Shown here one piece after another: positions 1,495 to 19,346 of a DNA stretch of 64,000 nucleotides (position 1 is the stretch's first letter; each line of letters begins with the position of its first letter). The notes under the pieces were generated by a model. It was not told the origin of the DNA. It did no database searches and saw only the letters and a list, made by a program, of their open reading frames with translations. The DNA is taken from assembly GCA_013388845.1 (NCBI GenBank), contig JACAEN010000026.1, positions 37,328-101,327 of the forward strand, in the 5' to 3' direction. The DNA comes from Chloroflexota bacterium (GTDB taxonomy: Bacteria; Chloroflexota; Dehalococcoidia; GIF9; AB-539-J10). A program made the position numbers and the translations under genes.

Positions 1495-1914
1495 ATGAGG
1501 TTTGAAAGCAGCATCGACGTCAATGCCCCTGCCGAGAAAGTCTGGGCGCTGATAGACAAACTTGAAGAGTGGCCCCAATGGATGCCGTCTATCAAGAAGA
1601 TTGAGAGAGCCTCTAAGGAGCCTTTGGCAGTGGGCTCACAGCTTTTTGTCACAGCTAAGGTAAGCGGGCTTACGGTCAAATTATTGATGACGATTACGGA
1701 ATTTGTCCCAGAACGGACCGTGGTTCTCGAGGGGAAAGCCTTAGGCACTAAGTTAAGACGCTTTTACACTCTGGAACCTGTAAATGGCAAGACGAAGGTG
1801 ACCATTGGCGGCGATGTCTCTGGGGCTTTAGCCTGGCTAGCGTGCCGAGGTGGGCAAAAGGTGTCAGCAGAAATTGCCCAAGCGGCGAAGGAAAAGGTCG
1901 AAGGGACGGGGTAA
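1495..1914 (+). CDS. SRPBCC (polyketide cyclase/START-like) family protein
   Basis: 139 aa, Polyketide_cyc2-like N-terminus (MRFESSIDVNAPAEKVWALIDKLEEWPQWMP). A GGGAG RBS sits before the ATG. Divergent from argC. Confidence 0.6.
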   Translation: MRFESSIDVNAPAEKVWALIDKLEEWPQWMPSIKKIERASKEPLAVGSQLFVTAKVSGLTVKLLMTITEFVPERTVVLEGKALGTKLRRFYTLEPVNGKTKVTIGGDVSGALAWLACRGGQKVSAEIAQAAKEKVEGTG

Positions 1915-1991
1915 GTAATAGAGTTGCCCAATCTGCTTTGTTGGGCACGCAACGACAAAAAGGCAGGTGCCTGACGAGTTAGGTACTTGTC

Positions 1992-3407
1992 ATGATTTTG
2001 TTTACTCTATCTGGCTTCAGACTTGCTATGCGAGGGAAAACAAAAAGCTCTGTCAGTGTAGTCCCGCTCAATTGCGCTGATAAATGCCTGCTGGCCCTTG
2101 ATAGCATAGGCGAACGTATGTATATTCACGTAATTCTGGAGCTCGAAGGAGAGGTGGACCCTGTTAGATTGAATCAAGCGATTTCGTCGGCACAACGAGC
2201 TTATCCCGTTATGAGAACGATTTTGCGGAGCAAAAATTTCAGGACTTTTCGCGAGATACAAGAAGACCTTGGGAAGGGGGTTTTGAGCGTCACAGACTGT
2301 GCTCAGTTTCATGATACTGACCCCGAAGGCTATCTTACCTCTTGGATGAATCGGCCTTTCAACCTCTGGAAAGAGTTCCCTGTGAGGATCCTTCTATTGA
2401 AGAAAAATGAACGAGAATCCTCGCTAGTTTTCACATTTCATCATTCGGCGGCAGACGGACTCCGTGCCCTTCTGTTCATAAGGAGAGTGGTCGAGAGTTA
2501 CAACAATGAGTGTTCTAAGAATTGTGAGTCCTCGGAGGACATTCGCATCAATCGAAAAGGAGATGAATTGCTGGAATTTGCCCACAGCCAGAGGGCAAGG
2601 GTAGAACATTATTATAGGAAAATGCTTTGTAGTCTATTCTATCGCTTTGTTATAGCTGCTGTTCCTCCCCCGACGAGAGTTTTCCACGACAGACAGGGAC
2701 AGTCTAGAGAACTCGGTTTTTGTTTCAAAGTTGTAGGCCCCAGGGATTTCAAGCAAATCCAATCCAAAGCAAGGGCGGCTGGAGTCGAGTTAAATCACGT
2801 CTTTCTGGCAGCTTGTTACCGAACAGTGGAGAAGTGGAATAGCATGCATGGGAAGACCAGCAAAAAGATCCGTATAATGGCTCCCGTAAATATAAGCCCG
2901 AAGGGTTTTCGCTATGTTGTTTCCAATCAGGCGTCGTGGTTTTCGCTACCTACCAAGCCCCAGGACAGAGCTGACCCCATAAAGCTATTGAGGAAAGTAA
3001 GAGCAGATACTATAGACGCAACGAGGAATAGAATAGCCTTCTCTTTGGTTTACTTCTTCTACTTTTGCTCTCGCTTTCCTCTATTTGTTATGAAGTGGAT
3101 GTGCCACTTCTTGATGATTACCCGCACATATGTTGATAGTATTCTCTTTACCAATGTTGGCTTCATCTGGCCCAAATTAGGCTCTGAAGAGCCGGCAGTG
3201 AGGAAAATAGGTGACGCTAAAATACTCAATATTACTGGCTCAGCACCGGTGGTGACTCCTATGGGGCTGAGCATCGCCTCCGGCACCTATAACAAACATC
3301 TAAATTTCTCTCTCAGTTACAGGCCCGCTATGTTCTCCGCAGAAAAAGCTCAGAAGTTCCTAGACCTATACCTCGGAGAGATTAAGAGCTATCAGGTTGG
3401 TGCGTAG
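1992..3407 (+). CDS. condensation-domain acyltransferase (HHxxxDG; WS/DGAT- or PapA5-like)
   Basis: 471 aa with an HHSAADG motif at ~aa 150, and a size and motif spacing typical of WS/DGAT or a stand-alone C-domain. The start is uncertain: 1992, or the ATG at 2028 (MRGKTKSS...). Confidence 0.55.
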   Translation: MILFTLSGFRLAMRGKTKSSVSVVPLNCADKCLLALDSIGERMYIHVILELEGEVDPVRLNQAISSAQRAYPVMRTILRSKNFRTFREIQEDLGKGVLSVTDCAQFHDTDPEGYLTSWMNRPFNLWKEFPVRILLLKKNERESSLVFTFHHSAADGLRALLFIRRVVESYNNECSKNCESSEDIRINRKGDELLEFAHSQRARVEHYYRKMLCSLFYRFVIAAVPPPTRVFHDRQGQSRELGFCFKVVGPRDFKQIQSKARAAGVELNHVFLAACYRTVEKWNSMHGKTSKKIRIMAPVNISPKGFRYVVSNQASWFSLPTKPQDRADPIKLLRKVRADTIDATRNRIAFSLVYFFYFCSRFPLFVMKWMCHFLMITRTYVDSILFTNVGFIWPKLGSEEPAVRKIGDAKILNITGSAPVVTPMGLSIASGTYNKHLNFSLSYRPAMFSAEKAQKFLDLYLGEIKSYQVGA

Positions 3408-3413
3408 AGCCTA

Positions 3414-4718
3414 ATGACAGTAGCGCTGGTAAAATTCAATGGCTCCCTGGATTCGCTTCGTGATGCTATCGAACTCTGTGACGGGTTTGGGAAGCTGCGC
3501 AAGAATGACAGAGTCTTGATAAAACCCAATAACTGTTTCCGACACAAAATAATGCCTCCTTATGGGATGGTGACTACGTCCTGGATTATAGACGGCGTCG
3601 TACAATTGTTGTTTGAATTTGGTTGCTACGATATTTCCATTGGTGAAGGTGCCATCATCGGTATATTTGATGAGCTTGAGCCGTATACGAAACGAGGTTT
3701 CAAAGGCACGGGCATTGACAGGATAGCGAAAAAATATGGAGTTAAACTGATTGATTTCAATAAGGGTGCTTTCCATGAGCTAGATTTAGAGGGGATAAAA
3801 GTCCAGGTCTCCAAAGTAGCCTTAGACACAGACTTTTTCATAAATATCCCCGTGCTCAAGACTCATTTTCAAGCCAAGGTCTCCTTGGGTTTCAAGAATC
3901 TGAAGGGTTGCCTCAGTCAGGACTCAAAAAGGAGATTTCATATTAGCAAGCGACTGGACACCCTAATTTGCCTTTTAAACGAAGCTATCAAGAGCGACTT
4001 GGTCATAATTGATGGTATCTATATGCTGGAGAAAGGGCCGGAGACTCTTGTGGGTGTAGCCCATCGCAAGGATTTGCTCATAGCCAGCCCGGACGTATTC
4101 GAGTGCGATGTTGTGGGGGCCACAATCTTAGGGATTGACCCGGCACAGGTGGACTATCTGAAAGAATTTGCCCGCAGACATGATCGCTCCTTTGATATCA
4201 GTGCGATTCAAATTAAAGGAGAGGCTATAGAATCTGTGAAGGAGCAGCTTGAATGGCGCTTTGAGCCAGACCAGGAGTTGCTCACGCCGGCCGGGGTAAC
4301 AGGGCTTTCCGCTCCTCATCCAGGGCAGACTCTTTGTTCCGCTTGTGGTGCCACGCTTGCTCTGGCGTTATCAATATTCGCCAAAGATAATCCTGGTACG
4401 GATTTTGGCGGTGTAGCGTTCTATTATGGGCTGGGATTGGAGCCGCAAGAAGATACTCCAAAGGTCATCCTTTACGGCGATTGTGCCATCGGAAGTAACA
4501 AGGGTTTGCAGAATGCCATCAAAATAAGGGGATGTCCGCCTACACTGACTAAGACTCTATTGGCCTTGATGAAAACCCTTCTTAGTAAGCCCAGAATGCG
4601 GAGGATGCTGTTCGTACAAGCCGCAAGATTGATTGGGATAAGGCTCGGGGTCGGCTCGGAGATTTTTCCTAGATGGAAGCGATACCGGTCAAAAGAATTC
4701 GACAGGACCCACTTTTGA
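3414..4718 (+). CDS. DUF362 domain protein (putative Fe-S protein) with Cys-rich C-terminal extension
   Basis: 434 aa. DUF362 hallmarks (RVLIKPNN..., NIPVLKTHFQAKVSLGFKN) plus a C-terminal CSACGA...C...C region. It starts 7 nt after the condensation gene stop. Confidence 0.6.
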   Translation: MTVALVKFNGSLDSLRDAIELCDGFGKLRKNDRVLIKPNNCFRHKIMPPYGMVTTSWIIDGVVQLLFEFGCYDISIGEGAIIGIFDELEPYTKRGFKGTGIDRIAKKYGVKLIDFNKGAFHELDLEGIKVQVSKVALDTDFFINIPVLKTHFQAKVSLGFKNLKGCLSQDSKRRFHISKRLDTLICLLNEAIKSDLVIIDGIYMLEKGPETLVGVAHRKDLLIASPDVFECDVVGATILGIDPAQVDYLKEFARRHDRSFDISAIQIKGEAIESVKEQLEWRFEPDQELLTPAGVTGLSAPHPGQTLCSACGATLALALSIFAKDNPGTDFGGVAFYYGLGLEPQEDTPKVILYGDCAIGSNKGLQNAIKIRGCPPTLTKTLLALMKTLLSKPRMRRMLFVQAARLIGIRLGVGSEIFPRWKRYRSKEFDRTHF

Positions 4719-4843
4719 GGAAAATTCTAAGCACTAAATACGAAATACTAAACAATATCAAAACAATAATGCCCAAAATCTGTAAAAGGCTTTGATATTG
4801 GAATTTGGAAATTGGGATTTGTTTAGAATTTCGTGCTTGGGAT
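4719..4843. repeat. AAATCC/GGATTT-rich inverted-repeat (MITE-like) element, copy A
   Basis: The left arm ..cactaaatacgaaatactaaacaat.. and the right arm ..ggaatttggaaattgggatttgtttagaatttcgtgcttgggatttaggatttgtc.. are mutually inverted. The same motifs recur at 28975-29160 and 50230-50350, each time at gene 3' ends. Confidence 0.35.
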
Positions 4844-5413
4844 TTAGGATTTGTCGAGGATTACCCATTCGACTTGGTTCTCGTTTTTGAGGACGGATAT
4901 GATGTGGTTATCGTACCTTAGTTGCTCCACTAGGGAAATTTGCCCCTTGTAGTCTAAAATAATATGGTTCTCATCCGGAACTGATACTATCCGACAAGTC
5001 TTCAACCCGCTTATGCCAACCCCCACCGCCTTCAGAACCGCTTCTTTCGCTGTCCAATAACGGAAAAATGTGTCCCAGGACTTCTCTGTTAGCTCCCATT
5101 CTTGGTCACTTGCCAGATAAGCAAAGAGCGATTCAGTCCGGGGCTTCATTTCTTCGACATCAATACCGACCCTGTCCTTGCTAACCACTGCCGCCACATA
5201 CTTCGGTTTATGGGAGAGAGACCAATAATTGCCATCAATCGGGCGGGGGACGCCATTTTCGTCTTGGTGCAGTTCTCCCAGCCTCACCCCACTTTTTTCG
5301 GCACTCAGTTTTAGCGCCTCTCGAGCAATCTGGCTTAGACGGTCTACCTTTTCTTCTCCTGAGGCTTTATGTGCGGCTTCGCCAACCGGCATAACTACTG
5401 GAAATAGAGTCAT
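4844..5413 (-). CDS. 4'-phosphopantetheinyl transferase (Sfp-type)
   Basis: 189 aa with the [12 protein letters not shown] PPTase signature and VGIDVEEM. Its start overlaps the fabI stop (ATGA). Confidence 0.75.
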
Positions 5414-6222
5414 GGGCTTATTGGACCCCTTAGTGCTTTCTTAATGGTATCCTTATCGAAGTAGTTAACCGACATCCCGGCATCGACGATAATACCCTGG
5501 GCATTGATGCCACTGGATCGCTCGCTTAACAGAAATGCCACTGTGTTGGCTACTTCCTTGGTGGTCAGAGCTTTTTTGCGCAAGGTTAATTGTTCTGCGA
5601 ACAGATAGTAATCTAGGTATCCGGGTATCCCGGCGGATGCCGAGGTTTTTAATAGCCCAGCGTTGACGGAATTAAATCGGATTTGGGAAAAAGAACTGAA
5701 AGATTTAGCCAGGAAACAGATGGTCGAGTCCAGGGCAGCCTTTACCGGAGCCATGAAGCCATATGGTTCGGCTGCCATTTTGGTGGTTGAGATGGAGATA
5801 GTAACTACGGATGCTTTTTCGTCAAGCAGGTCTTTAAACGCATTGGCAATAGCGATCAGGGAATAGCAAGAAATGTCAACTGACTGCAGGAAGTCTTTCT
5901 TTTTTGTTTCGTGAAACGGCTTGACTCCTCCTTCGTAATTGGCAAAAGCTATGGAATGAACGATGCCGTGGAGTTTGGGATACTTTTTGGCGACATCTTC
6001 GGCTAGTTTCTTGATTTCCTCCTCGTGTTCGACGTCACACACGAAAATATCAGCACCAGGCAGGATTTTGGAAACGCTCTCCTTTCTAGCCTCTGACCGA
6101 ACGCTGTAGACTACATTTGCCTTGGCTTCAGAAAGAACCTCTCCCACCGAGAAGGCGACGCTCTTCTTGTTAGCTACGCCAAAAACCAGGAAGGTCTTAT
6201 TCTGAATGTCTGGGAAATCCAT
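5410..6222 (-). CDS. enoyl-[ACP] reductase, FabI-like SDR
   Basis: FabI-like N-terminus ([16 protein letters not shown]), a Y..M..K catalytic region ([13 protein letters not shown]), and LLSERSSGI. Start moved to the ATG at 6222, which is preceded by an AAGGAG RBS; the track start 6252 lacks an RBS. Confidence 0.7.
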
Positions 6223-6260
6223 GTGACGCTCCTTATTATACCTCCCAGTCATATAACGTG

Positions 6261-6701
6261 TTAGGATGCCTCTTTAGCCAAGGTGACGGTAAACTCGACT
6301 GTGACCGAGGTCTTGCCGCCAACCGAGGCTTTGCCCTTCATATAATAGGCATTGCTGATTTTTTCGACTAACTCTGCTTCAATATCCAAGGTGCTGCCGG
6401 GCCTGACGATATTTTTGAACTTGGCGTTATTAATTCGGGTGAGGACAGGAATGCCGCCACTGAGACCGCCCATCATTTTCGAAAGCAAGATGGCGCCTGT
6501 CTGGAAGATGGATTCACAGATAAGTGCCCCAGGCATGATGGGCTGACCGGGATAGTGTCCCTGGAAGACCGGGTCATCGGGCTTTATCTCTTTCACTGTT
6601 TTAATTTTCGTTCCGCTTATTTCCACGATTTTATCAACAAATAGAAACGGTGGGCGATGGGGTATGGCGTTGAGAACCTCTTCCATCTCATAGTCCTCCA
6701 C
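6261..6701 (-). CDS. 3-hydroxyacyl-ACP dehydratase (FabZ-like hot-dog)
   Basis: 146 aa with HRPPFLFVD....[11 protein letters not shown], the classic FabZ/FabA motif. It overlaps the fabG stop. Confidence 0.75.
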
Positions 6702-7428
6702 TTACTTCAAGAACAGAACCGGTAACGTAGGATGCTTCTTTAGAAGCCAGGAAAAGTACACAAGCAGCTACTTCCTCGGCGTTTCCGAATCTCTTCATGG
6801 GAATCCTGGCCAGGTAAGCTTCACGCAATTTATCCGGAAGGTCCTGGATGAGTTCGGTGGCGATAAATCCCGGAGAGACGCAATTAACCGTAATGCCCCG
6901 AGTGGCGACCTCTTTAGACAACGCTTTGGTCAGGGCAACCAACCCGGCTTTGGAAGCGGCATAGTTGGCCTGGCCTTCGAAGGCGTATCTTTCCATTACA
7001 GAGCTTATGTTGATAATTCGTCCATATCGTTTCCGCATCATGTTCATGACAGCGAATTTGCACATGTAAAAGATGCCGGTGAGATTGACGTTCATCACAT
7101 CATGCCAGTCCGACTCTTTCATCATCGCCAGGACGGAGTCCTTACGGATGCCAGCGTTGTTCACCAGGATTTCAAAGCCTCCGTATTTGCTGTCTATATA
7201 TTTGAAAAACCTTTCCACCTCTTCATATTTGCTGACGTCAAGCTTCTGAACATTAAGGTTTTCGGCGAACTGGCTGTTGTCTTGTTTGAATTTGGCGGCT
7301 GCTGCTTCGTTGGTCAGATAGGTGGCAATAACTTTCGCACCTGACGTCAGGAAGCTCTCAGCGATGGTTTTGCCTATTCCTCTGGTGCCACCGGTAACGA
7401 TAACAGTCTGTCCTTTAAAATCATGCAT
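6688..7428 (-). CDS. fabG: 3-oxoacyl-ACP reductase FabG (SDR)
   Basis: 246 aa with TGGTRGIGKTIAE, an NNAG, and YxxxK (YAASKAG). Confidence 0.8.
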   Translation of the reverse strand: MHDFKGQTVIVTGGTRGIGKTIAESFLTSGAKVIATYLTNEAAAAKFKQDNSQFAENLNVQKLDVSKYEEVERFFKYIDSKYGGFEILVNNAGIRKDSVLAMMKESDWHDVMNVNLTGIFYMCKFAVMNMMRKRYGRIINISSVMERYAFEGQANYAASKAGLVALTKALSKEVATRGITVNCVSPGFIATELIQDLPDKLREAYLARIPMKRFGNAEEVAACVLFLASKEASYVTGSVLEVSGGL

Positions 7429-7445
7429 TTGGTAACTCCCCTAAC

Positions 7446-7466
7446 CCCCTCTTATCTTAAGAGGGG
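7446..7466. repeat. perfect 8-bp-stem hairpin repeat ccctctta-tct-taagaggg (copy 1)
   Basis: It lies between the CrtI-like #1 stop and the fabG start. An identical 19-mer recurs at 8981-8999, with the shared flank gaact. Confidence 0.5.
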
Positions 7467-7470
7467 AACT

Positions 7471-8889
7471 TCAACGGACGCCCCCTGCTGAAAGAAATTT
7501 ATCTACATCATTGGCGACGATTACTCCGTAATTGGCTGCGCCCAGCCAACCTGACATAATAATCCCAACGGACCCAGTGTGAAAAAGTCCCGCTACCTCT
7601 TTAGAAAGCCCCATGCTGATTTTCAAGCCTTCAAATTTGGTGCCAAAGGATGCGCCATTTAAATGGAGCGTATACCTTTGAAAAGTCCTGGGAGTAGCAG
7701 CTTCCAAGTGGTCTACTTTATCTCGAATCTTAGGAACATATTTTTCCAGAGCATCAAGCGTTCGTTGAATCAATTCTTCCTTAGAGGCTCGGTATTCTTC
7801 TTCCGATAGGTTTGCCCAGTCGTGGTAATTGGCGTGAGCAGAGGCGACAATGGAGTACATATCGGAGCCTGGCCGGGTCTGGGGATAATAGATGGAGAAC
7901 GACCGGCTGGTAGTGTTTTTGCTGCAGAGTTCCTGCGGGTCGAATTTCTCTGCCTCCGAGGTAAAGAGTAAATCCCCAATGTAGTCAATCTTCTCGCCCT
8001 TTTTGATGCTGATATAGACTTGGCAAGTGCTGTTATTGAGACGCACCTTCTTGGCCTCTTTAAGGAAGCTTTGGGAAAAGTATTCGTCTCCGACCAGTTT
8101 ATGGATGGTTGATAATAGATTACCGTTGGAGACAACTGCCTTGCTCTTGATCATATTTCCGTTTGCTATTACCCCGACAGCTTTTCTATCTTTGACTACA
8201 ATCTTTTCCACCAGGCACTTAGTTCGAATATCAACGCCATTTCTTAGAAGTTCTTCCTGCATTTTTCCAATAAACTGGTCAGTTCCCCCTCGAACAGTAT
8301 AAACACCCTTGCTCATGAAGTTGGAAAACACAATTCCATAAGTTATGGCAGGGTCATCCGGGGTTGACCCGTTGGCATAGGCAATCGGCTCCATTAACAG
8401 GCGGTGAACATCATCATGACCAGGGAAAAATTCTTCCAAGAATTGTCTGGTGGTCATGCTTGGGTCATCGTAGAAATTCATGCTTCTGGCTGTGTCGAAA
8501 AAGGCTTCAATATTCTCTTGGGGTATCTTAAACCGCTGCTCCAGGATGCGTGTGAAATCCTCCCGGTCGTAGGTTGTGGTAAAGGAGAACTGGGGGTTGT
8601 CAAATCTGATCCCTTTGAGTTGAACAATCATGCTAGCAATTTCCGGGCTCCAATATTTACGGCAGGTTTTAATCATGCCAACGGGAAATCCGTGCAAAGC
8701 GACATCAAAGATATGCTCCTTTCTTTTGAACCAGGTAGCCAAGCCACCAAGCTTGGAATGCTGCTCAAGAAGTAGGACTGAGTATCCTCCTTTAGCCAGC
8801 ATATTGGCACATGTCAATCCTGCCAGTCCACCGCCGATGACGATGACATCGTATTCCAGCTTTATCTCTTTTGCCCAATCCTGGCTCAT
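7471..8889 (-). CDS. FAD-dependent oxidoreductase, phytoene desaturase (CrtI)/amine-oxidase family, paralog 1
   Basis: 472 aa with an N-terminal [12 protein letters not shown]...E....GG Rossmann motif and the CrtI-like length. It is a paralog of 9050..10435 (shared LSEEEY(R/K)A.K motif). Confidence 0.7.
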
Positions 8890-8980
8890 ATGTTTTCCTT
8901 AAGTACTCGCATTTTGTAGCCTCTTTCCTTCATAACTCCCGCCGATTGCATCGGCATCCTCGACAGAGTCGGGACCTTGC

Positions 8981-8999
8981 CCCTCTTATCTTAAGAGGG
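8981..8999. repeat. perfect hairpin repeat ccctctta-tct-taagaggg (copy 2)
   Basis: It lies between the CrtI-like #2 stop and the CrtI-like #1 start, and is identical to 7447-7465. Confidence 0.5.
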
Positions 9000-9049
9000 A
9001 GAACTGTGATAAACCTAACTGTTACTGGATTTTAACATTTGGATTTTGA

Positions 9050-10435
9050 CTATGTCTTCTGTAGGACGTGAAGATTGGCCATGGAAATGCCACTCAGTAT
9101 GGCTCCCACGATTCCCAGAAATCCCTGGTCTGTGCCACAGATAAATAGATTATCCAGATGAGTCCTCCCTGTTTTGATTTTGCTTGGCGTTCCATAGACT
9201 GCGCCATTTATGTGGCCGGTGAATCTGTGGATTGTTTTGGGAGTAAAGATATCAGTAAAGATAATGGAATCGCGGAAGTCGGGGACAAAGTTCACCACTT
9301 CTTTGAGCGTGGTTTGCAACCAGGCGGCTTTCTGGGCTTTGTACTCTTCTTCACTTAATTTGTTCCAGAGCTCAAAGTTGGCTAAATTGGTTATCCTAAT
9401 TATGCCCTCCGGCAAAGGAGTTTCAAATTGAAAATTATTGGGGCAGCAGATAACGCCACTGGAGACGTCGACCAGCTCGTCCGGTTTTCGGTAATCAAAT
9501 CTATCCGAATTGTTGTAAAAGGTTATGGTTGTGTCATAACCCATTTTGGCAGGTTCCTTACCCAGGACCATAATAGACTCCATACATGAGATTTGACCCA
9601 CATCGTGGTTAAAACTTGCAGAATCGTAATCCGACAAAAGCCTCATGGTTTCAACATAGCCAGCGGATGATAGTATCCTGTCGGCTGTCAACACCTCGCC
9701 ATTTTCGAGCTGGATCGATTGAACTCTGCCGTTAGCGCACTCTAGACTTGTTACGGCACAGCGCATCCTTAACTCGCCGCCACAGGCCTTATATTTCCTT
9801 ACTAGCACGTCGAGAATTTGGCGGGCCCCGGCTCGAGGTCGAGCAAAACCTTCACAGAAGATGCTTTTGAACATGGTAACAAACTGTGCGAACTCCATGT
9901 CGTTCTCCTGGGCATTCCCGTAAAACATAAGCGGGCAGAAAATCATATCACTGAGGAGCGGGTCGGTGATAATGGAGCCGACAACTTCACGGGCCGAAAT
10001 CGGTTTGGCATACAGGTTCAGTTCATCATATTCGAAAATGGTCTTAAGCAGTCTTAGGAAGTTGTCAGCTTGTCTAGGAAAATTATCAACTACCTCCTGG
10101 ACGAAGAAGTCGAAGTTGTTATTAAACCTGAGGGTTTTGCCCGGGAATTTGATTACTGACATTTGTTGCGGACATAAGGCGAAATCTTCAGCTTTTAGCT
10201 TGAGCTGTCGGAGCAACTTGGGCAGTGGTGCTAGTTTAACACCTTTGGGGACATAATTAGTCATGGCATGGAGCCCCACATCGAATTTCCGCCCCCCAAG
10301 GTTGTAAAAAGAATTGAGACCTCCAACACGATAATGCTTTTCCACGATGCAGACCCTTTTGCCGTAGTAGGCTAATCTAATGCCGGCGGCAAGGCCAGAC
10401 ATTCCCGCACCGATAATTAGAACATCGTAATGCAT
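9050..10435 (-). CDS. FAD-dependent oxidoreductase, phytoene desaturase (CrtI)/amine-oxidase family, paralog 2
   Basis: 461 aa with MHYDVLIIGAGMSGLAAG...E....GG, and a C-terminal GTDQGFLGIVGA typical of the CrtI family. Confidence 0.7.
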   Translation of the reverse strand: MHYDVLIIGAGMSGLAAGIRLAYYGKRVCIVEKHYRVGGLNSFYNLGGRKFDVGLHAMTNYVPKGVKLAPLPKLLRQLKLKAEDFALCPQQMSVIKFPGKTLRFNNNFDFFVQEVVDNFPRQADNFLRLLKTIFEYDELNLYAKPISAREVVGSIITDPLLSDMIFCPLMFYGNAQENDMEFAQFVTMFKSIFCEGFARPRAGARQILDVLVRKYKACGGELRMRCAVTSLECANGRVQSIQLENGEVLTADRILSSAGYVETMRLLSDYDSASFNHDVGQISCMESIMVLGKEPAKMGYDTTITFYNNSDRFDYRKPDELVDVSSGVICCPNNFQFETPLPEGIIRITNLANFELWNKLSEEEYKAQKAAWLQTTLKEVVNFVPDFRDSIIFTDIFTPKTIHRFTGHINGAVYGTPSKIKTGRTHLDNLFICGTDQGFLGIVGAILSGISMANLHVLQKT

Positions 10436-10532
10436 GGTCAGGCTCTTCTTCAGAATAGAAGGCTAATCTAAACCTGCTATCCTCGGGAAAATGAATAGAA
10501 ACTTGCGTTCTTCAGCTTACCCACACTAACGG

Positions 10533-10784
10533 TTAAAGTTTTCTCATCCGGGGCTCTAGATAAACTACGGAGCTATCCAATGTGGCTAGATGTACATAGT
10601 CATCCTCGGGTACTTCGATACCGTAGCGCTTTCGCAGCTCCATAATAATGTCTAGGAAGTCCATGGAGTCCAGTTCCACTTGTTCTCGTATCGGGATATC
10701 ACCCTTAAGATTACTTAGATCTTCGTCGGGTATGATTTGGGCTATGATTTCCAGAATTGTGTCTCTAATTTGCTCCTTGGTCAT
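10533..10784 (-). CDS. acyl carrier protein (dedicated)
   Basis: 83 aa. A ~75-aa ACP fold with the Ser attachment site in the variant ELDSMDFLD motif. Confidence 0.75.
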   Translation of the reverse strand: MTKEQIRDTILEIIAQIIPDEDLSNLKGDIPIREQVELDSMDFLDIIMELRKRYGIEVPEDDYVHLATLDSSVVYLEPRMRKL

Positions 10785-10822
10785 ATACCCCCCATTTGTC
10801 TATTTCAAGAATGCTTTCAGCG

Positions 10823-12073
10823 TCATTGCTTGAATCTTTTTGCGATAACGACTGAATTGATGCCTAGCATTCCGAAGGAATTATTCAATATATAATCAAC
10901 CTTGTCAATCTTTTTCGGTTCATTAATAACAAAGTTGCTAAGACGACACTCAGGGTCCAAGTGGTCCAGATTTATCGTGGGATGGACAGTATTGTCTTCG
11001 AAAGAGGGTAAATTACCGGCTAATTCTAGGGCACCAGCAGCTCCCATAGCATGACCGATAAAACTTTTGGTGTTGTTTATATAGGCATGGGGATGTTCAC
11101 CAAAGACTTCTCTAATTGCCTGACATTCTACAGGGTCTCCTTCGATGGTACCTGTCCCATGGGTGTTGATGATATCAATGTCTTCTGGGGATATGCCGGC
11201 CTTGTTAAGGGCCAGTCTCATGCACTGGACTTGTCTTTCTTTATTGGGGAAAATAAAGTCAGCGGCATCTGAGTTAATAGCATAGCCCGCGATTTCACCG
11301 TAGATTTTAGCTCCTCTTTTGAGGGCATCGCTTAGTCTTTCCAGAACAAAGATACAGCCGCCTTCGGAAACAACCACACCATTTCTATCTTTATCGAAAG
11401 GACGGCATGCCTTGGTAGGGTCTGGGTGGGAAGCCAAAGCCCCTTCACTTCTAAAGCCAGCGAAAATACCAAAGGAGCCGGTGCACTCTGAAACCCCTCC
11501 ACCCAAGGCCAAATCGACTTCGTTCAGCAGCAGCATTTGTAAGCCGTGTATGAGCCCAATGTTGCCGCCAGCACAAGCAGCCCCCAAGGTGTAGTGTGGT
11601 CCCGTGATTCCCAGATTCAAGGTGACTTCACCAGCGGGATTATTAGCGACGACTCTAGGATTGTGATGGTGCGACCAATATTTCACGTCATAGTTAAATT
11701 GCTTAATTTCGTAGATTTCGTTTTCGGTTTCCACGGTGCCGTGTTCGGTAATCCCAAGATAGACACCAATCTTGGATTTGTCCAGGCAAGCAAGGTCCAA
11801 TTTGGCATCAGCTATTGCTTCTCGGGCACAGTAGATGGCGATGGAGCCTGCCCTCGTCCCCCGACGCAATTCCTTCTTTTTTTGATACTTCAAGGGGTCA
11901 AAGTGGCATATGCCTGCCAGTACATCACCCATATAGCGGATATTTAATTTTTGTATGCCGGATTTCCCCTCAAGCAAACTTTTTCGAAATTCCGCCAGAT
12001 TATTCCCGTTGGGCGCTGTTAAACCAACTCCGGTTATTACAATTCGCGTTTCGTTAGGTTCCTTTGCGACCAT
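10823..12073 (-). CDS. beta-ketoacyl-ACP synthase (KAS I/II, FabF/FabB-like)
   Basis: 416 aa with active-site ACAGG, HGTGT and GHAMGAAG motifs. Confidence 0.85.
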   Translation of the reverse strand: MVAKEPNETRIVITGVGLTAPNGNNLAEFRKSLLEGKSGIQKLNIRYMGDVLAGICHFDPLKYQKKKELRRGTRAGSIAIYCAREAIADAKLDLACLDKSKIGVYLGITEHGTVETENEIYEIKQFNYDVKYWSHHHNPRVVANNPAGEVTLNLGITGPHYTLGAACAGGNIGLIHGLQMLLLNEVDLALGGGVSECTGSFGIFAGFRSEGALASHPDPTKACRPFDKDRNGVVVSEGGCIFVLERLSDALKRGAKIYGEIAGYAINSDAADFIFPNKERQVQCMRLALNKAGISPEDIDIINTHGTGTIEGDPVECQAIREVFGEHPHAYINNTKSFIGHAMGAAGALELAGNLPSFEDNTVHPTINLDHLDPECRLSNFVINEPKKIDKVDYILNNSFGMLGINSVVIAKRFKQ

Positions 12074-12184
12074 ATCAGACCGGAACTTGAAAAAATATAT
12101 ATCAAAATACTTTGAGGAGACTCAAGCGCATCGCTGTTCGAAGGTGTACTTATCTGAGCTCATCTCGATGGGGGTCGTTTTTCG

Positions 12185-13234
12185 CTACCATTCCAGACCC
12201 AGCATAAGACAGACCAGACCACTGCCAATCCCTAGCATAGCAACCTTGTCACCAGATTTAAGTAGCCCCTGGTCAGTTCCGATAGCCATGGTAATGGGCA
12301 GAGAAACCGAGCCGATGTTCCCCAAATATTCCACAGTGGAAAAGTTTTTTGTGTAATCTAGTCCTAGGGTCTTGAACAGCAGTTTACTATGCGTAGCGCT
12401 AACCTGATGAGTAAAGAACCTATCTACATTGGAGTTCATCCACCCCAGCTCTTGTTTTGTAGCCTCCCAGGTGTCAGGTGCCAGTTTCAGTCCATTTTTC
12501 AGGACCTCTTCATAGTCTGTGCGCATGTCCGGGAGCTCGGCCAAGTCAAAGAAAGAGGCATCAGTGTCTATGCGACAAAGGCCATTATGTTGTGAAGCGG
12601 ACCGCGTCACTCCGCCGAGAAGCCTATGACCATCTTGCGATAAGGAGGAGTGGGTTAACACCGCTGCCACTGCTCCTGACCCCAAAGTTAGAGTGGCAAA
12701 GGCGAGCTTGAGCTTATCTTTCGTGATGTCGGAGTCTTTCAGGAGTTTATCGATCGTGGCCTCAACAAGAAGTCTACTGCTCTCACAGCCAACCACGACC
12801 CCAGCTTTTACCTGTCCCAACTCAATCATATTTGCCAGGGTTACCATGCCGTTGATGAACCCCAGGCAAGCATTGGAGATATCAAAGATAGTAGCCGTGG
12901 GAGGAAGGCCCAAAGAGTCATGGACCACGGTAGCTGTCGCTGGCTCCAAGAAATCACGCGATACCGAGGTATGGAGCAGGCATCCGATATCCTCTTTTCT
13001 GACTCCAGACTTACTAATGGCTTTTTCTGCTGCTTTTATACTGGCCTGACTGGGCGTTACGCCGTCGTCCCAGAATCGCCGTTCGCGAATTCCAGTGATC
13101 ATTTCTAGGCGCCCGTAGGAAAGTTTAAATTTGTCGTATATCGGGGCCAGTCTTTCTTCCAGGCTTAGAGACGTGACGATATTTTCAGGAAGTTCGTAAC
13201 CAAAAGACTCAACACAGACCTTTTCGTACCGCAT
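12185..13234 (-). CDS. 3-oxoacyl-ACP synthase III (FabH-like)
   Basis: 349 aa with ITGIRERRF, the Cys motif NACLGF, THQVS and GNIGS. Confidence 0.7.
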   Translation of the reverse strand: MRYEKVCVESFGYELPENIVTSLSLEERLAPIYDKFKLSYGRLEMITGIRERRFWDDGVTPSQASIKAAEKAISKSGVRKEDIGCLLHTSVSRDFLEPATATVVHDSLGLPPTATIFDISNACLGFINGMVTLANMIELGQVKAGVVVGCESSRLLVEATIDKLLKDSDITKDKLKLAFATLTLGSGAVAAVLTHSSLSQDGHRLLGGVTRSASQHNGLCRIDTDASFFDLAELPDMRTDYEEVLKNGLKLAPDTWEATKQELGWMNSNVDRFFTHQVSATHSKLLFKTLGLDYTKNFSTVEYLGNIGSVSLPITMAIGTDQGLLKSGDKVAMLGIGSGLVCLMLGLEW

Positions 13235-13305
13235 TCAGTACCCTACTTCTCCCTCACCAATACCGTGAGGAGCTACGATGAAAACAGCTATATCAACTCG
13301 CAGGC

Positions 13306-13731
13306 TTACTTTTGCCTGCTCGGCACCAATTTCGGAATGTGAAACTTGGTTCTAAGATTCTCCCATCTCCCCATAGATTCCGGGGGAATTATCTCGTCTG
13401 GAATGTACTTTCCTACTCCAGCCAGGACAGCACAGACCTTTCTGGAGTTCGCAACTTCGTCAGGGACGTACTCGTCGGCGGTAGCTATAAGGTTAGAGAG
13501 GAGCCTCCGAGGAGCCAATCTCTCGACCCACTTAATTGCGAAGGAAATTAGCCTATTTGGCACACGTTTATCCAAAAAGTTAAGGGCGAAAAGCAACAAC
13601 CTATCGGGGGCGTATTTATCCACTATTTTCACAAAAAGACGGAACCCCTTCTTTGCCAGGGACCTGATTATAAAATCAAACTTGGGCTTTTTTTCCTGTA
13701 ATGCCGTGTCCTCTGTCATGTCCTCTCTCAC
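13306..13731 (-). CDS. hypothetical protein with internal ~15-aa tandem repeats
   Basis: 141 aa. The repeated motif is KYAPDRLLLFALNFL / KRVPNRLISFAIKWV / ERLAPRRLLSNLIAT / DEYVPDE / KYIPDE. It sits at the head of the FAS-like operon. Confidence 0.4.
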   Translation of the reverse strand: MREDMTEDTALQEKKPKFDFIIRSLAKKGFRLFVKIVDKYAPDRLLLFALNFLDKRVPNRLISFAIKWVERLAPRRLLSNLIATADEYVPDEVANSRKVCAVLAGVGKYIPDEIIPPESMGRWENLRTKFHIPKLVPSRQK

Positions 13732-13799: not shown

Positions 13800-14061
13800 G
13801 AGGCTGAGATACATGGGTAATACTCATGGCATGGTTAGTAGTGATACTAAGTTAGCATGAAGAGTTACGAGATGACAAAGCCGGTCAGCTTCTCCCCCGA
13901 TGCTAATTGGAGAAAAACCATTGTCCCGACCTGTCGCGATAACTTCAACCGCCCGCACCAATCACTTGGCTACCTTGTTCTATGCAGCATAATGAAAAGC
14001 AACTTACCAAGATGTGTAGTCCAGTGTTACCCGTGTGGTCGGCCAGCACGCGGTATTGACA
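13800..14061. repeat. ~250-bp dispersed repeat, copy 1 (3' end = TTGACA)
   Basis: About 80-85% identical by eye to 27901-28166 and 48701-48929. It begins ..gctgagatacatgggtaa and ends ..gtggtc(a/g)gccagcac..attgaca. There is no conserved ORF across the copies. Confidence 0.6.
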
Positions 14062-14083
14062 CTTCCTTCACTATTGATATAAT
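14056..14083 (+). promoter_or_regulatory. sigma70-like promoter (TTGACA-16-TATAAT); -35 contributed by repeat copy 1
   Basis: ttgaca 14056-61 and tataat 14078-83. It is ~185 nt upstream of the 14269 ORF. Confidence 0.4.
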
Positions 14084-14268
14084 ATCTCATGCAATAGTAG
14101 TGTAAGACTAATGTGCAGTTGAAGTCAAATGTGTGCATCAGAGGATTGTCATAATTCTCATCAAGCTCAGTCGAGCATATATAGACCTGTGAATTCAGCT
14201 CTCTCTTCCTATAGCGACGAAATTTGCAATCTGCGTCGACCTGGTCAGAAAAGGAGACAGGAAACTCC

Positions 14269-14535
14269 ATGCCATGTAGAATCGGAATAACCACAGACCC
14301 GGAAGGAAGACGGGAATACTGGCAAAAGCAAGCCGCAGGTTTTGACAATTGGCAGATACTGGAAATCTTCAGAAGCAGAGCGGCAGCGAAGGAATACCAG
14401 ACCGAGTATGCCTTAAGACATGGATGTGAGGCAGCACTAGGCGATCTCGATGCGCCTGTCACAGCTAGGGAATTAGCGACTGAGCACGACTGGTGGTATG
14501 TCTACCACTTTGATTACGTCCTCAAGGCAGACTAA
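14269..14535 (+). CDS. hypothetical protein
   Basis: 88 aa (MPCRIGITTDPEGRREYWQKQ...). An AAGGAG RBS lies ~10 nt upstream. The track start 14224 has no RBS. Confidence 0.35.
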   Translation: MPCRIGITTDPEGRREYWQKQAAGFDNWQILEIFRSRAAAKEYQTEYALRHGCEAALGDLDAPVTARELATEHDWWYVYHFDYVLKAD

Positions 14536-14769
14536 TCAGATGCTGAGCAAACCGCATTGAAGTCCCTTTCCTTGGCCTTCACAGAACGATTATGGTGACA
14601 AAAGGGAGGAGAGACCTCCGTCAGCTATCCCGGGGACACAACACCTAATTTGCACTAGGCCTAGTCCTTCACCTTGTGAAGGATGGTGTCCCCGGAATTA
14701 CAAAAATAATCCCTCGCTCAGTCGGTGGCGACCTGCATCACGGTCTGACTTAAAGAGGCGGAAGCAGAG

Positions 14770-16086
14770 TTAAGCTGGCTTCTTGAGCTTTCCCGGGCCA
14801 AATGAAGAGTAATCCAGGTCATAAAATTGCCGGCATACGGTAAATAAACCATACTGCACGCCACCTAAAACTATTTTGGCTTCCGCAGAATCACGATAAT
14901 ACTTCTCGTAGTTGTTTTCACGGACATAACCGAAGGAACCCATGAGCTCCATCCCTCTCAGGATTAGTTCTGACGCTTTCCTGGTAATAAATACATGCAC
15001 CGCATGTCCTTTAGCTGCCATACTTACCGAATCCCAGGGGCCGTAAATCTCCCGATGGTCAAACTGATAGGCCAGTTCCAAAAAGGCGGCCCTGGCCACA
15101 GTTATTACCGATGCCATCTCGCCCAATATGACAGCCGATGAAAGGTGCTGGTTGATTGGTTTGCCGCCTACTACCCTCTTTCCTGTATAGTCAAGAAGGA
15201 CATCGAAGGCTCCTTGCAAAATACCTGTGGCATGCCCCGAGTTCATAGCCATAGGAGCAGCCAAGATTTCTTGAAAGATAGCCCAAGCTTCAGGCCCCTG
15301 TAGTCCCCACTCCTTGGGCACCCTGACATTATCAAAATAGGTAGAGGTGTTTCGGTCAGCTTGCATGCCACATTTGACCTCAAATTTGCCATGGGAAACG
15401 CCAGGCCAGGGTTCGGGAACATAAATCAAGGCAAAGCCATCTATCCCCAGCCTCGGGTCCATATTACAAACCACGCAATTGAGGTCAGCTATGCCACTAT
15501 TAGATGCCCAAAACTTGGTCCCGTTTATTACCCATTCGTTACCTTCAAGTTTAGCCCTCACCCCTATCGTTCTGCCTTCATTCAAGGTATTCTCAATATC
15601 AACGGCCGACTCGACTTCGCTAAAGTTCATGCAGGCAACGGCTAACTCTTTGCCGGTGAACTTGGGAGCAAACTCATCAAGCACCGCTTTCGCCCATGCT
15701 TTTGCCCGCCGAGAAAAGGGGCCGATATAGGCTGTAAAAGCCGGTTGCCACCCCCAGTCGGTGCAGGCACTGTGCATACTTATGCCATAGTCGCCGCGCC
15801 CTATCTGCTCTTGCCTTAAGGCAGCGCCAACAACGGTACTCCTCTCCCCAGTGCCACCATACTCCTCCGGTATCATGCTTTTCTGGCAACCAAGGTCTAC
15901 CTGTAATTTCTTCAGGATGGGAGTAATTATTTTTTCATGTGTTACGTCATCATCAATCTTGGCGCGAACTGGCATAATCTCCTTGTCAGTAAAATCAGCA
16001 AACACCTTCTGCAGCATCCGTTGCTCTTCATTAACAAAACACTCCGGGTATTGTAATTTGTACCATTGACTGCTCTGATTTAACAC
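14770..16086 (-). CDS. acyl-CoA (or acyl-ACP) dehydrogenase family protein
   Basis: 438 aa with the ACAD fold and a TKFWASNSG motif; the C-terminal helical domain is present. Confidence 0.75.
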   Translation of the reverse strand: MLNQSSQWYKLQYPECFVNEEQRMLQKVFADFTDKEIMPVRAKIDDDVTHEKIITPILKKLQVDLGCQKSMIPEEYGGTGERSTVVGAALRQEQIGRGDYGISMHSACTDWGWQPAFTAYIGPFSRRAKAWAKAVLDEFAPKFTGKELAVACMNFSEVESAVDIENTLNEGRTIGVRAKLEGNEWVINGTKFWASNSGIADLNCVVCNMDPRLGIDGFALIYVPEPWPGVSHGKFEVKCGMQADRNTSTYFDNVRVPKEWGLQGPEAWAIFQEILAAPMAMNSGHATGILQGAFDVLLDYTGKRVVGGKPINQHLSSAVILGEMASVITVARAAFLELAYQFDHREIYGPWDSVSMAAKGHAVHVFITRKASELILRGMELMGSFGYVRENNYEKYYRDSAEAKIVLGGVQYGLFTVCRQFYDLDYSSFGPGKLKKPA

Positions 16087-16396
16087 TTATCCCTCCTTTG
16101 AATGCGCACTTCTTGTCAAGTTCTGCACTTCGATATTAGATTCCTTCGGTTAATAGATGCTCTAATCCATGATTACCCTCCTTCCCAATCTTTTTTAGCC
16201 CTCCTTTGCTATGTAATACACCGTCACCCATGTTGAAAAACTCGTTATCCAAAGTACTGCCGCCAGTGTGAGCCAAAGTATTACCTATTCAACGAGGCTT
16301 GCAAGCCTTGTCCAGAGAGTCTGATAGATAGTCAAACTCATGCCTGAAGGCTTCCAATTTACTTCGTCTCTTATATTTAATGCCTTAGTCTGGTAG

Positions 16397-17146
16397 TCAA
16401 ATAGCAATTTCCTGCCTCAAGGCTTCCACGATTCCCTTAACTTTTTTCTTATGTTCCTCTCTACCTATAGTGTAGGAATGCGGAACCCAATTCATGTCCT
16501 GCAGATTCTTCACTATATTGGGAAGCAAAACCCGGGGGATGGATATAAGCAGCAGACCCTCCGGAAATAGCCTTCTTGACCTCATGCCGAAACTAAAACC
16601 GGGCATCATGAAATTCAATTCGCCACTTACATATGGGTAAATATATAGCCAGGCGCACGCTGCCACCGATGTCCCCTTAGCGGACCACATATTCCCCGTC
16701 GTATAGCTGTTTGCCCTCAGTATGACTTCTGCTTGACTCGGGTCGGCGGTGACAATTAATACGTCTGGCTCGAATGACAGTTTGTCTAAAGGAGAGAAAG
16801 TAACGTAGTTAACGGTATCCTTAGCCAGTCTCGGAATGAACTGATAGATTCTTCTGTTGGCACGTGCTTCCTTAAAGACTTCTAACTTAGGTCCTACTCG
16901 TCCGCTCTCGAAAATTGGGTCACTATCCACCATACCCAATATCAGCGGCCCTATACACGTGAAGTTCTCTTTTGTTACATAAAAAGTGCTGCCATCTTGT
17001 GCTTCTACAAGCATCTCACAAAAATCTAGAATCTTGTCTAACTTTTTAATTCCATCCGGTTTAGTAGGTAAGAACTTAACACCTACGGGTTTCCTCTCAA
17101 ATTTAAATTTGTTGAATATGGATAAGTCCTGTTGTATCGAACTCAC
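16397..17146 (-). CDS. DUF169 domain protein
   Basis: 249 aa. KPVGVKF...FCE...G..F....E.F.C.GP is consistent with DUF169 (COG2043). Confidence 0.55.
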   Translation of the reverse strand: MSSIQQDLSIFNKFKFERKPVGVKFLPTKPDGIKKLDKILDFCEMLVEAQDGSTFYVTKENFTCIGPLILGMVDSDPIFESGRVGPKLEVFKEARANRRIYQFIPRLAKDTVNYVTFSPLDKLSFEPDVLIVTADPSQAEVILRANSYTTGNMWSAKGTSVAACAWLYIYPYVSGELNFMMPGFSFGMRSRRLFPEGLLLISIPRVLLPNIVKNLQDMNWVPHSYTIGREEHKKKVKGIVEALRQEIAI

Positions 17147-17186
17147 ATCAATCTCCTTTTGGTTTCAGAATATGCCTGAGCGTGAC

Positions 17187-17969: not shown

Positions 17970-18139
17970 GTATTGTACCTCCCTTAAGCGCTAACTTGAT
18001 GTCTATATAATTCTTATATAACAAGCCGTGGTCGCCCAGCAGGCTGCAAAACAGACATATGGTCACGCCTCAACGGCACACACGCGACGTAGAGCATCCC
18101 TTCCGCTGTCTCTTTGTTAATTTATTTCTTTAATCGAGG

Positions 18140-18925: not shown

Positions 18926-19261
18926 TTGTTTCCTCCCTTTTTAGTTCGTTATTTAGCAAAACAATGATAAGCAGCTTAGCATGTGATTGTCAATATTACA
19001 CGCTCGGTTTTGTCAATTGGCCTTTCATGAGCGAACCAAGTTAAAGCTCTAAGCCAGTCTAAGAGACAGAAGTATTTGGGATTCGATTGAAGTATCCAGT
19101 GATTCATAGGCATTCAGTCTCCAAATCCGCGGCTGAACCACCAGCCAGCCAAAACATAAATCTTGCTCCCTCTTAAGTATGGCACTTGCTAGGTCAGTGA
19201 AGTCTGAGAATAGCTTGAGGCAAGTCCTGTAAAATGCTATTGTATTAGGTGGCTTTCCATC

Positions 19262-19346
19262 GGGGAAGTGTCGGAATTGGCAGACGAGCATGACTTAGGA
19301 TCATGTGCTGAAAGGCGTGGGGGTTCGAGTCCCCCCTTCCCCACCA
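19262..19346 (+). tRNA. tRNA-Leu (anticodon UAG)
   Basis: The acceptor stem GGGGAAG/CTTCCCC pairs correctly. The D-stem is TCG/CGA. The anticodon stem CATGA/TCATG closes a CTTAGGA loop, giving anticodon TAG. It has a 13-nt type-II variable arm, a GGGGG-TTCGAGT-CCCCC T-arm, discriminator A and an encoded CCA. Confidence 0.85.

Follow-up and report, generated by a model that had tools for sequence, protein, structure and literature searches.

An OleA-type thiolase embedded in a conserved type II fatty-acid synthase and flavoprotein cluster of Dehalococcoidia, with a predicted role in oxygen-independent synthesis of unsaturated long-chain lipids

What would a bacterium make with an operon that combines the enzymes of type II fatty-acid synthesis (FAS II) with two flavoproteins resembling carotenoid desaturases? 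The question is raised by positions 1495–13731 of a 64,000-nucleotide (nt) stretch of DNA from a Chloroflexota bacterium (Dehalococcoidia; GIF9; AB-539-J10), which we refer to as the window (GenBank assembly GCA_013388845.1, contig JACAEN010000026.1, positions 37,328–101,327 of the forward strand). A preliminary description, made from the letters without database searches, listed 13 open reading frames (ORFs) in this region, including a ‘KASIII’, an elongating ketosynthase (KS), an acyl carrier protein (ACP), two flavin adenine dinucleotide (FAD)-dependent flavoproteins (here Crt1 and Crt2), FabG, FabZ, FabI and a 4′-phosphopantetheinyl transferase (PPTase). Our gene calls, based on an ORF listing and on profile searches with Pfam and NCBIfam, recover all 13 with the same coordinates, domains and tight junctions (Table 1). 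Here we report that the ‘KASIII’ gene is, by sequence, an OleA-type thiolase and not FabH, and that the cluster is a widely distributed, tightly conserved lipid module whose function we predict from homology and gene context. We give a probability of roughly one half to the reading that this is an OleA-centred lipid cluster, in which a type II acyl synthase with oxygen-independent unsaturation feeds a head-to-head condensation. The module probably makes unsaturated long-chain neutral lipids without oxygen.

The identity of the thiolase is the point on which the predicted product turns. Searched against the PDB, its top matches were OleA structures (3ROW, 3S21, 4KU2 and 5VXD; E = 1e-72, 248 bits), whereas FabH proteins reached at most 83 bits; among the best twelve matches, all except 3FK5 are what we take to be Xanthomonas campestris OleA entries. 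The protein scored 456 bits against NF006720 (cut-off 285), a model also matched by the OleA of an oleABCD cluster in a related locus (L078), to which it is 55% identical. In a HMMER alignment, its E97, C123, H276 and N306 coincide with OleA Glu117, Cys143, His285 and Asn315, and all 29 homologues examined from related loci keep the equivalents of these four catalytic residues unchanged. What sets head-to-head condensation apart is Glu117, which acts as the base (work cited in PMC7064751). We therefore replace the KASIII assignment with OleA, and the expected product is then no longer a tailored fatty acid but a lipid formed by head-to-head condensation; the thiolase is predicted to be a Claisen condensing enzyme that joins two long acyl thioesters in this way. 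Characterized OleA contexts comprise oleABCD, oleBC fusions and oleACD (PMC7064751), and OleA alone inside a FAS II operon is a fourth genomic context that is not among the documented ones.

The arrangement extends well beyond this genome. A scan of a genome collection found the cluster in about ten Dehalococcoidia metagenome-assembled genomes (MAGs), and orthologues of Crt2 also in MAGs carrying the labels Deltaproteobacteria, Nitrospirae, Planctomycetia and Victivallaceae; metagenomes scanned with an alignment built from these proteins added 80 further loci. A protein identical to the window Crt2 is already recorded from a MAG named ‘Chloroflexi bacterium’. Synteny was assessed by tblastn and all-against-all ORF clustering over 96 related loci. 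Presence counts use only contigs long enough to judge, and a locus with a Crt2 identity of at least 74% is termed Dehalococcoidia-like. A module of the form KS–ACP–Crt1–Crt2–(FabG)–FabZ–FabI–(PPTase) recurs in several phyla on contigs with G+C contents (GC) of 38–65%. On contigs of widely differing GC, identity to the window proteins is 62–72% for KS, 60–72% for FabI, 62–66% for Crt2 and 46–64% for Crt1. Dehalococcoidia-like loci carry OleA (21/21), KS (27/27) and FabZ (30/30), and ACP is the one gene not always present (29/30). In the more distant loci the counts are 32/40 for FabZ, 26/40 for Crt1, 16/26 for KS, 19/31 for FabI, 14/40 for FabG, 12/28 for PPTase and 2/22 for OleA. Among all judgeable loci, ACP lies next to KS in 50 of 65, Crt1 is found in 57 of 71 and PPTase in 34 of 50. 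An arrangement kept in dozens of independent contigs is far beyond chance, and no further genes are widely conserved around the module in the 96 loci. Its minimal unit is Crt2 plus FabZ alone, present in five loci (L010, L016, L061, L062 and L067). One of these (L016, with the order Crt2–hypothetical–FabZ) belongs to Thalassoroseus pseudoceratinae, a cultured planctomycete and the only cultured host seen.

Several variants of the module were also recorded. Two loci (L054 and L056) have a block Crt2–FabG–FabZ–FabI–PPTase that lacks Crt1, KS and ACP upstream; a TPR protein lies upstream on the opposite strand and a LeuA/homocitrate-synthase-like gene follows the block. In two low-GC (38%) copies, a pair of PMT-family membrane glycosyltransferase-like genes follows PPTase (L094, 15588–18864; L073, 6619–9212), and one of the two also has an S-adenosylmethionine (SAM) methyltransferase between Crt2 and FabG (L094, 11531–12472), which suggests that this lineage tailors its product differently.

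The operon head shows its own pattern of conservation. The gene hyp141 encodes 141 amino acids with four to five repeats of the pattern phi-[DG]-K-[YR]-phi-P-[DN]-[RE]-phi; it was found in 19 loci and, in Dehalococcoidia-like loci, is always directly upstream of OleA. In one relative (L006, 8711–10009) a diverged hyp141 (28% identity) and an OleA-like gene (30% identity, catalytic residues kept) are co-duplicated. Four others (L007, L031, L037 and L038) have a tandem duplication at the operon head, with the order OleA–KS–ACP–OleA–KS–Crt1–Crt2 and so on, and their paired OleA paralogues recall LstA/LstB, the heterodimer of lipstatin biosynthesis.

In distant loci the module is physically joined to other genes of olefin synthesis. 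Annotation of the neighbours with Pfam and NCBIfam revealed OleC-type beta-lactone synthetases (NF045786, 580–586 bits; PRK09274, over its cut-off), OleD (NF042422, 381 bits) and an OleB-type hydrolase that resembles haloalkane dehalogenases. In L078, oleA-oleB-oleC-oleD lie directly upstream of KS–ACP–Crt1–Crt2–FabG–FabZ–FabI and in the same direction; in L090, L094 and L064, KS is immediately preceded by oleC and/or oleD; and on the 2.48-Mb contig of L097 a block Crt2-like–FabG–FabZ–FabI is about 6 kb from oleD-oleC-oleB-oleA. The GC of ole-linked contigs ranges widely (L094, 38%; L090, 58%; L078, 64%; L064, 65%). Because ole genes are uncommon, their repeated adjacency to the module across contigs of very different composition, together with the presence of OleA in every Dehalococcoidia-like copy, indicates a strong functional link. 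The window resembles the oleABCD systems of Xanthomonas and Shewanella in its OleA orthologue with all four catalytic residues, and these five relatives attach the same FAS and flavoprotein module to oleB, oleC or oleD; the full set of the three near the module occurs in L078 and L097 and not in the window. A literature search for a connection between OleA or oleABCD and phytoene-dehydrogenase-like (PD-like) genes found nothing relevant.

The second part of the question concerns the flavoproteins. Crt1 and Crt2 are paralogues (25% identity), each with an N-terminal GxGxxG FAD motif. Against TIGR02734, the CrtI family model (cut-off 238.1), Crt2 scored 89.4 bits and Crt1 64 bits. The best NCBIfam match of Crt1 is carotenoid isomerase (104 bits), Crt2 matches CrtD (120 bits) and carotenoid isomerase (115 bits), and the CrtD and CrtISO equivalogs, at no more than 120 bits, stay far under their cut-offs of 550–587. 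PDB sequence matches were weak (4REP and 4DGK). A first structure model of Crt2 was poor (predicted local distance difference test, pLDDT, 61.6) and a second, for which the alignment included Crt1 paralogues, was of moderate quality (pLDDT 69). Foldseek with this second AlphaFold2 model returned 4REP, 3KA7 and 4DGK as best matches at 15–18% identity, adding only a re-confirmation of the CrtI/amine-oxidase fold. Thus, the two proteins share with CrtI, CrtD, CrtISO and RetSat the FAD Rossmann fold and the GxGxxG motif, and their best structural matches are gamma-carotene desaturase (4REP) and CrtI (4DGK), but the sub-cut-off scores and the weakness of these matches make them distant members of the CrtI/CrtISO superfamily and not carotenoid enzymes. 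The annotated ORFs of the window contain no SQS_PSY or other crt domain, and the conserved neighbours in the 96 loci contain none either. A carotenoid function was ruled out on these scores and on the lack of crt context.

The context of the flavoproteins points instead to fatty-acid synthesis. No other gene of the module is as conserved or as widespread as Crt2, which keeps 63% identity even in named Planctomycetota and Victivallaceae genomes. The Crt2 family is tight: a search of 1.84 billion cluster representatives gave only some six full-length 50%-identity clusters that reach 41% identity, and the values then drop to about 30%. Crt2 has FabZ as an immediate or close neighbour in 62 of the 70 loci that could be judged, with FabZ or FabG as the adjoining gene, and this constant adjacency would place flavoprotein action at the stage of the ACP-bound cycle where the chain is an enoyl or 3-hydroxyacyl intermediate. 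That Crt2 and FabZ form the minimal conserved pair likewise argues that the flavoprotein acts within the FAS cycle and not on a finished product, and the suggestion that the two flavoenzymes belong to the acyl-ACP cycle is thereby strengthened. In one MAG labelled Deltaproteobacteria (L008), the nearest relatives of Crt1 are all of the Dehalococcoidia type (69–74% identity), which marks that contig as mis-binned or recently transferred.

These elements suggest a pathway, with substrates, flavoprotein action and product all predicted from homology and gene context. The FabF-like KS, the dedicated ACP activated by the Sfp-type PPTase, FabG, FabZ and the FabI-like reductase would build an acyl-ACP. 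Crt1 and Crt2 would act on ACP-bound intermediates at the dehydratase step and install or move double bonds without O2, through flavin-dependent dehydrogenation and/or isomerization of the enoyl intermediate, so that the chains would be unsaturated and possibly polyunsaturated. OleA would then join two chains by a non-decarboxylative Claisen condensation to give a 2-alkyl-3-keto acid. Because OleB, OleC and OleD are absent from the locus, this acid would lose its carboxyl group and become an unsaturated long-chain ketone; expression of oleA on its own yields long-chain ketones (PMC3122158). Alternatively, the OleA product may be reduced and then esterified by the acyltransferase encoded on the opposite strand, which resembles PapA5 and WS-DGAT enzymes in its condensation-fold HHxxxDG domain. 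PapA5 transfers ACP-bound acyl chains to long-chain secondary alcohols, and a reduced OleA product could plausibly undergo a similar reaction; the matches of the window protein are weak, however (50 bits for TIGR02946, cut-off 310; E = 8e-4 for PapA5), and its gene is lineage-specific and replaceable. The SRPBCC protein could be a lipid binder, and the DUF362 protein, with its putative Fe–S centre, a redox partner of the flavoproteins.

A mechanistic parallel is FabX of Helicobacter pylori, an acyl-ACP dehydrogenase/isomerase of the FMN/nitronate-monooxygenase type that contains flavin and [4Fe-4S] and, like FabA/FabB, FabM and FabN, provides an oxygen-independent route to unsaturated fatty acids. 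The predicted logic is the same, in that a flavoprotein with a nearby Fe–S protein would divert an intermediate to an unsaturated branch at the dehydratase step of FAS II, and in both cases a specialized KS and FabZ accompany the flavoprotein. The differences are that FabX belongs to a family unrelated to Crt1 and Crt2, that the window module has its own ACP and PPTase, and that the function of the Crt proteins is predicted.

Several points weigh against this OleA-centred pathway. By tblastn with queries from L078, L094 and L097, no OleB, OleC or OleD was found in the window or within 10 kb of any Dehalococcoidia-like locus; they could lie elsewhere in the genome, or OleA could have been recruited for another role. 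Ole genes are nearby in only about five of the more distant loci, and most have none within 10 kb. The cluster has no obvious enzyme for an ACP-to-CoA hand-over, while characterized OleA uses acyl-CoA, and FabI is odd in a module for a polyene or polyunsaturated product unless it is active in some cycles only. Finally, Kuenenia PD-like genes expressed with FAS genes in a heterologous host gave no polyunsaturated fatty acids (PMC4790861, PMC10139942).

The preliminary description recognized no named pathway in this architecture, yet clusters that combine FAS II and PD-like genes are known from Kuenenia stuttgartiensis, Desulfotalea psychrophila, Geobacter and Pelobacter (Rattray 2009, PMC2649909), at loci that include kuste3603-3608, kuste3335-3352, the adjacent DP2405/DP2406, and DP1860 (PMC2649909). 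Desulfotalea makes C31:8 and C31:9 hydrocarbons, reportedly without Pfa, and a new anaerobic route to polyunsaturated fatty acids was proposed (PMC2649909); this polyunsaturated or ladderane route is also treated in Javidpour 2016 (PMC4790861) and Dietl 2023 (PMC10139942). The Kuenenia PD-like proteins do not complement crtI (PMC4790861), an anammox cluster amxACP-amxFabZ-FabF-PDH-rSAM has been proposed to make a ladderane precursor (PMC10139942), and reviews from 2023 and 2026 still call the desaturase or PD-like role unproven or hypothetical (PMC10139942, PMC13459092). Compared by described architecture, the Kuenenia and Desulfotalea clusters share with the window a dedicated ACP, FabZ, a FabF-type KS and PF01593 flavoproteins in one cluster, and the two adjacent PD-like genes of Desulfotalea recall the Crt1/Crt2 pair. 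The window operon differs in having FabI inside the module (reported elsewhere in the genome in those organisms), in the presence of OleA and the Sfp-type PPTase, and in lacking radical-SAM genes, methylase genes and a non-canonical FabF, its own KS triad being the canonical Cys-His-His. On this likeness of gene architecture, the locus may be seen as an extension of the 2009 proposal. New here are OleA alone inside a FAS II operon, the two flavoprotein paralogues together with FabI and the Sfp-type PPTase, and the lineage-specific acyltransferase, DUF362 and SRPBCC genes.

A more specific version of the scheme, which we offer tentatively, is that KS–ACP–Crt1–Crt2–FabG–FabZ–FabI constitutes a dissociated type II, oxygen-independent polyunsaturated acyl synthase. 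Crt1 and Crt2 would then supply both isomerase activities, trans-2 to cis-3 and trans-2 to cis-2 (or a dehydrogenation equivalent), the role of the FabA-like DH in Pfa synthases, and Crt2 with FabZ alone would be a minimal new anaerobic route to monounsaturated chains. Known producers of C31:9 pair ole with pfa (PMC4882568, PMC3098273), and the joining of an acyl-chain factory to ole genes has a counterpart in pfa of Geobacter bemidjiensis (PMC4882568); the chain factory of the window is a dissociated type II system with CrtI-like flavoproteins and not a multidomain Pfa. All proteins of the cluster are discrete and monofunctional, without the multidomain type I architecture of Pfa, and KS scores only 90 bits against the PfaA model (cut-off 1010). 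If such a synthase exists, it would explain the C31:8 and C31:9 hydrocarbons of anaerobes that lack Pfa, such as Desulfotalea, would give a role to the PD-like genes of anammox ‘ladderane’ clusters, and would predict unrecognized long-chain polyunsaturated ketones or esters in sediment Dehalococcoidia. These bacteria are abundant, and if a class of unsaturated long-chain ketones or esters of theirs has gone unrecognized, this would bear on how lipid biomarkers are interpreted. A compact and extremely conserved unit of 8–10 genes, with a minimal pair in Crt2 and FabZ and a link to ole genes, makes the question tractable by expression.

A rival account is that the cluster is the housekeeping FAS II of these Dehalococcoidia, in which the OleA-like thiolase would initiate synthesis and Crt2 and FabZ, with or without Crt1, would provide unsaturated membrane fatty acids without oxygen, as FabA/FabB or FabX do. 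The elongation set is complete, and FabG (TIGR01830, 298.3 bits; cut-off 297.75) and FabZ (NF000582, 124 bits; cut-off 113; His and Glu motifs present) reach the thresholds of their models. The cluster is fully conserved in the lineage, and the rest of the window holds core chromosomal genes (argC-like, serA, serC, tyrS, ribF, aro genes, ruvB, rpoB, rpoC, uvrD and mutL), with no other fab, crt, ole or pfa genes among its annotated ORFs. Crt2 homologues are very abundant in metagenomes, and the retention of Crt2 and FabZ alone at more than 80% identity within Planctomycetaceae suggests a core function. Against these points, the other enzymes fall well under the equivalog cut-offs: KS has 318 bits against 494 (TIGR03150), ACP is sub-cut-off in every AcpP model (best 40.7 against 66), and the FabI-like protein has 181 against 362 for the best FabI equivalog. 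PPTase is Sfp-type and not AcpS, its best NCBIfam matches being HetI, AusB and EntD, all sub-cut-off. The cluster thus holds none of the AcpP, FabF, FabI and FabH equivalogs, FabD/PlsX or AcpS of a housekeeping FAS II, and the earlier view that this is not the usual fab layout is borne out. Neither FabD nor PlsX is encoded in the window; the reported lack of fabD holds there and not for the family as a whole, because a FabD-type malonyl-CoA:ACP transacylase (PF00698) directly follows PPTase in seven relatives (L007, L029, L033, L034, L037, L041 and L042), an observation that favours the housekeeping account. That account must also accommodate a thiolase that retains the OleA-specific Glu117 and its close resemblance to an OleA from an oleABCD operon, a module that is accessory in other phyla and sits with ole genes there, and the lack of a KASIII-like gene in most copies outside Dehalococcoidia. 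On balance we consider it unlikely.

It is less probable still that the product is a specialized metabolite not of the olefin type, such as a conjugated polyene or a ladderane-type precursor, off-loaded by the condensation-type enzyme onto an alcohol or amine. CrtI-type enzymes extend conjugation beside existing double bonds, and a dedicated ACP, an Sfp-type PPTase and an HHxxxDG condensation-domain enzyme would suit such a product, as would a radical SAM gene beside SRPBCC in nine relatives and the resemblance to the anammox cluster of ACP, FabZ, FabF and PDH-like genes (PMC10139942). However, the module includes FabI and FabG, its operon has no B12-dependent radical SAM gene, the condensation enzyme is not a constant part of it, and an identity of 60–70% across several phyla (with Crt2 in named genomes of five) is atypical for secondary metabolism. 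With 76 bits to amxFabZ and 91 bits to an ordinary FabZ, that of Campylobacter, the window protein shows no special tie to the anammox enzyme. The weakest candidate, the anaerobic furan-fatty-acid route with UfaD-like desaturases floated in the preliminary description, draws on UfaD being a CrtI-like fatty-acyl desaturase and on reports of furan fatty acids from Dehalococcoides, but is very improbable given that the known UfaM/UfaD/UfaO route needs O2 and acts on phospholipid-bound acyl chains, that positions 1495–13731 encode no methyltransferase domain (UfaM), that no UfaO-like gene was recognized at the cluster, where no search with a UfaO model was made, and that the flavoproteins travel with ACP, FabZ and OleA in many phyla not known for furan fatty acids.

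The minus-strand operon comprises ten genes, from hyp141 through PPTase. FabG and FabZ overlap by 14 nt and FabI and PPTase by 4 nt, and the remaining gaps are 8–160 nt. By inspection the catalytic motifs are intact in KS (Cys-His-His, in ACAGG, HGTGT and GHAMG), FabZ (His/Glu), FabI and ACP. The operon ends at 4844 and the plus-strand trio (SRPBCC, the condensation-type gene and DUF362) at 4718, which makes the two units convergent (tail-to-tail) and not divergent as first described. An Rfam scan returned only tRNA, and promoter and terminator scans were uninformative.

Table 1 Genes of the OleA, FAS II and flavoprotein cluster, with window coordinates and the basis of each assignment
Gene or product	Position	Strand	Basis or motif
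hyp141	13306–13731	-	no Pfam/NCBIfam match
OleA-type thiolase (formerly ‘KASIII’)	12185–13234	-	NF006720, PDB OleA matches
FabF-like elongating ketosynthase (KS)	10823–12073	-	Pfam ketoacyl-synt N and C domains
ACP	10533–10784	-	PF00550; DSM serine motif
Crt1, FAD flavoprotein of the CrtI/CrtISO/amine-oxidase superfamily	9050–10435	-	PF01593
Crt2, FAD flavoprotein of the CrtI/CrtISO/amine-oxidase superfamily	7471–8889	-	PF01593
FabG 3-ketoacyl-ACP reductase	6688–7428	-	TIGR01830
FabZ 3-hydroxyacyl-ACP dehydratase	6261–6701	-	NF000582
FabI-like enoyl-ACP reductase	5410–6252	-	PF13561; Tyr-x6-Lys
Sfp-type 4′-phosphopantetheinyl transferase (PPTase)	4844–5413	-	PF01648
DUF362 protein, Cys-rich C-terminal half, putative Fe–S protein	3414–4718	+	PF04015, 125 bits
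Condensation-domain/WS-DGAT/PapA5-like acyltransferase, HHSAADG	1992–3407	+	PF00668, E = 9e-18; WS_DGAT_C, E = 0.0017
SRPBCC (Polyketide_cyc2) small lipid-binding-fold protein	1495–1914	+	PF10604, E = 7e-16

The plus-strand trio is confined to Dehalococcoidia-like loci. SRPBCC is kept at this end of the cluster in at least ten of them. DUF362 occurs in 14: in L032, L036 and L039 it directly follows PPTase on the same strand, and in L041 it lies inside the operon, with which all three genes are co-directional there. In four relatives (L005, at 14364–18680, L022, L028 and L050) a protein of 1438 amino acids takes the place of the condensation enzyme and DUF362; it combines a BcrAD/BadFG ATPase with DUF2229, is of the CoA-enzyme activase type and sits between PPTase and SRPBCC. 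A PDB search gave no relative for DUF362 and nothing useful for the condensation enzyme or the radical SAM gene.

On the other side of the operon, the ACAD, SDR and DUF169 genes that the preliminary description had tentatively added to the island have no syntenic counterpart in any of the 96 related loci. In 11 relatives YqeY directly adjoins hyp141, with DUF1015 beyond YqeY in eight, so the 14.5 kb at 13.8–28.3 kb of the window appear to have been inserted or rearranged in this lineage, next to a tRNA gene. This stretch (13800–28300) holds a doubtful ORF (hyp152), ACAD, two DUF169 genes, SDR, two FMN reductases, a radical SAM gene and an ABC-2 transporter, in addition to tRNA-Leu (19262–19346) and a prismane/CODH-family gene (25682–27586). 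As it is absent from the relatives and without synteny, membership of ACAD, SDR, DUF169 and tRNA-Leu in the island was ruled out. The radical SAM gene (20039–20992, minus strand) is of the plain type and in the window has shifted to the opposite side of the cluster, where it lies 6 kb from hyp141; in nine relatives (L002–L005, L012, L013, L022, L028 and L050) an orthologue with 72–81% identity stands beside SRPBCC and divergent from it, and the gene may belong functionally to the cluster. Within the same stretch, a DrrA-like ABC ATPase gene (22916–23962, minus strand) is split by an in-frame TGA at 23348–23350, in the context RRLL*DYV where Trp is expected, and an intact paralogue adjoins it at 21907–22995; the split gene could be a pseudogene, a sequencing error or a case of read-through.

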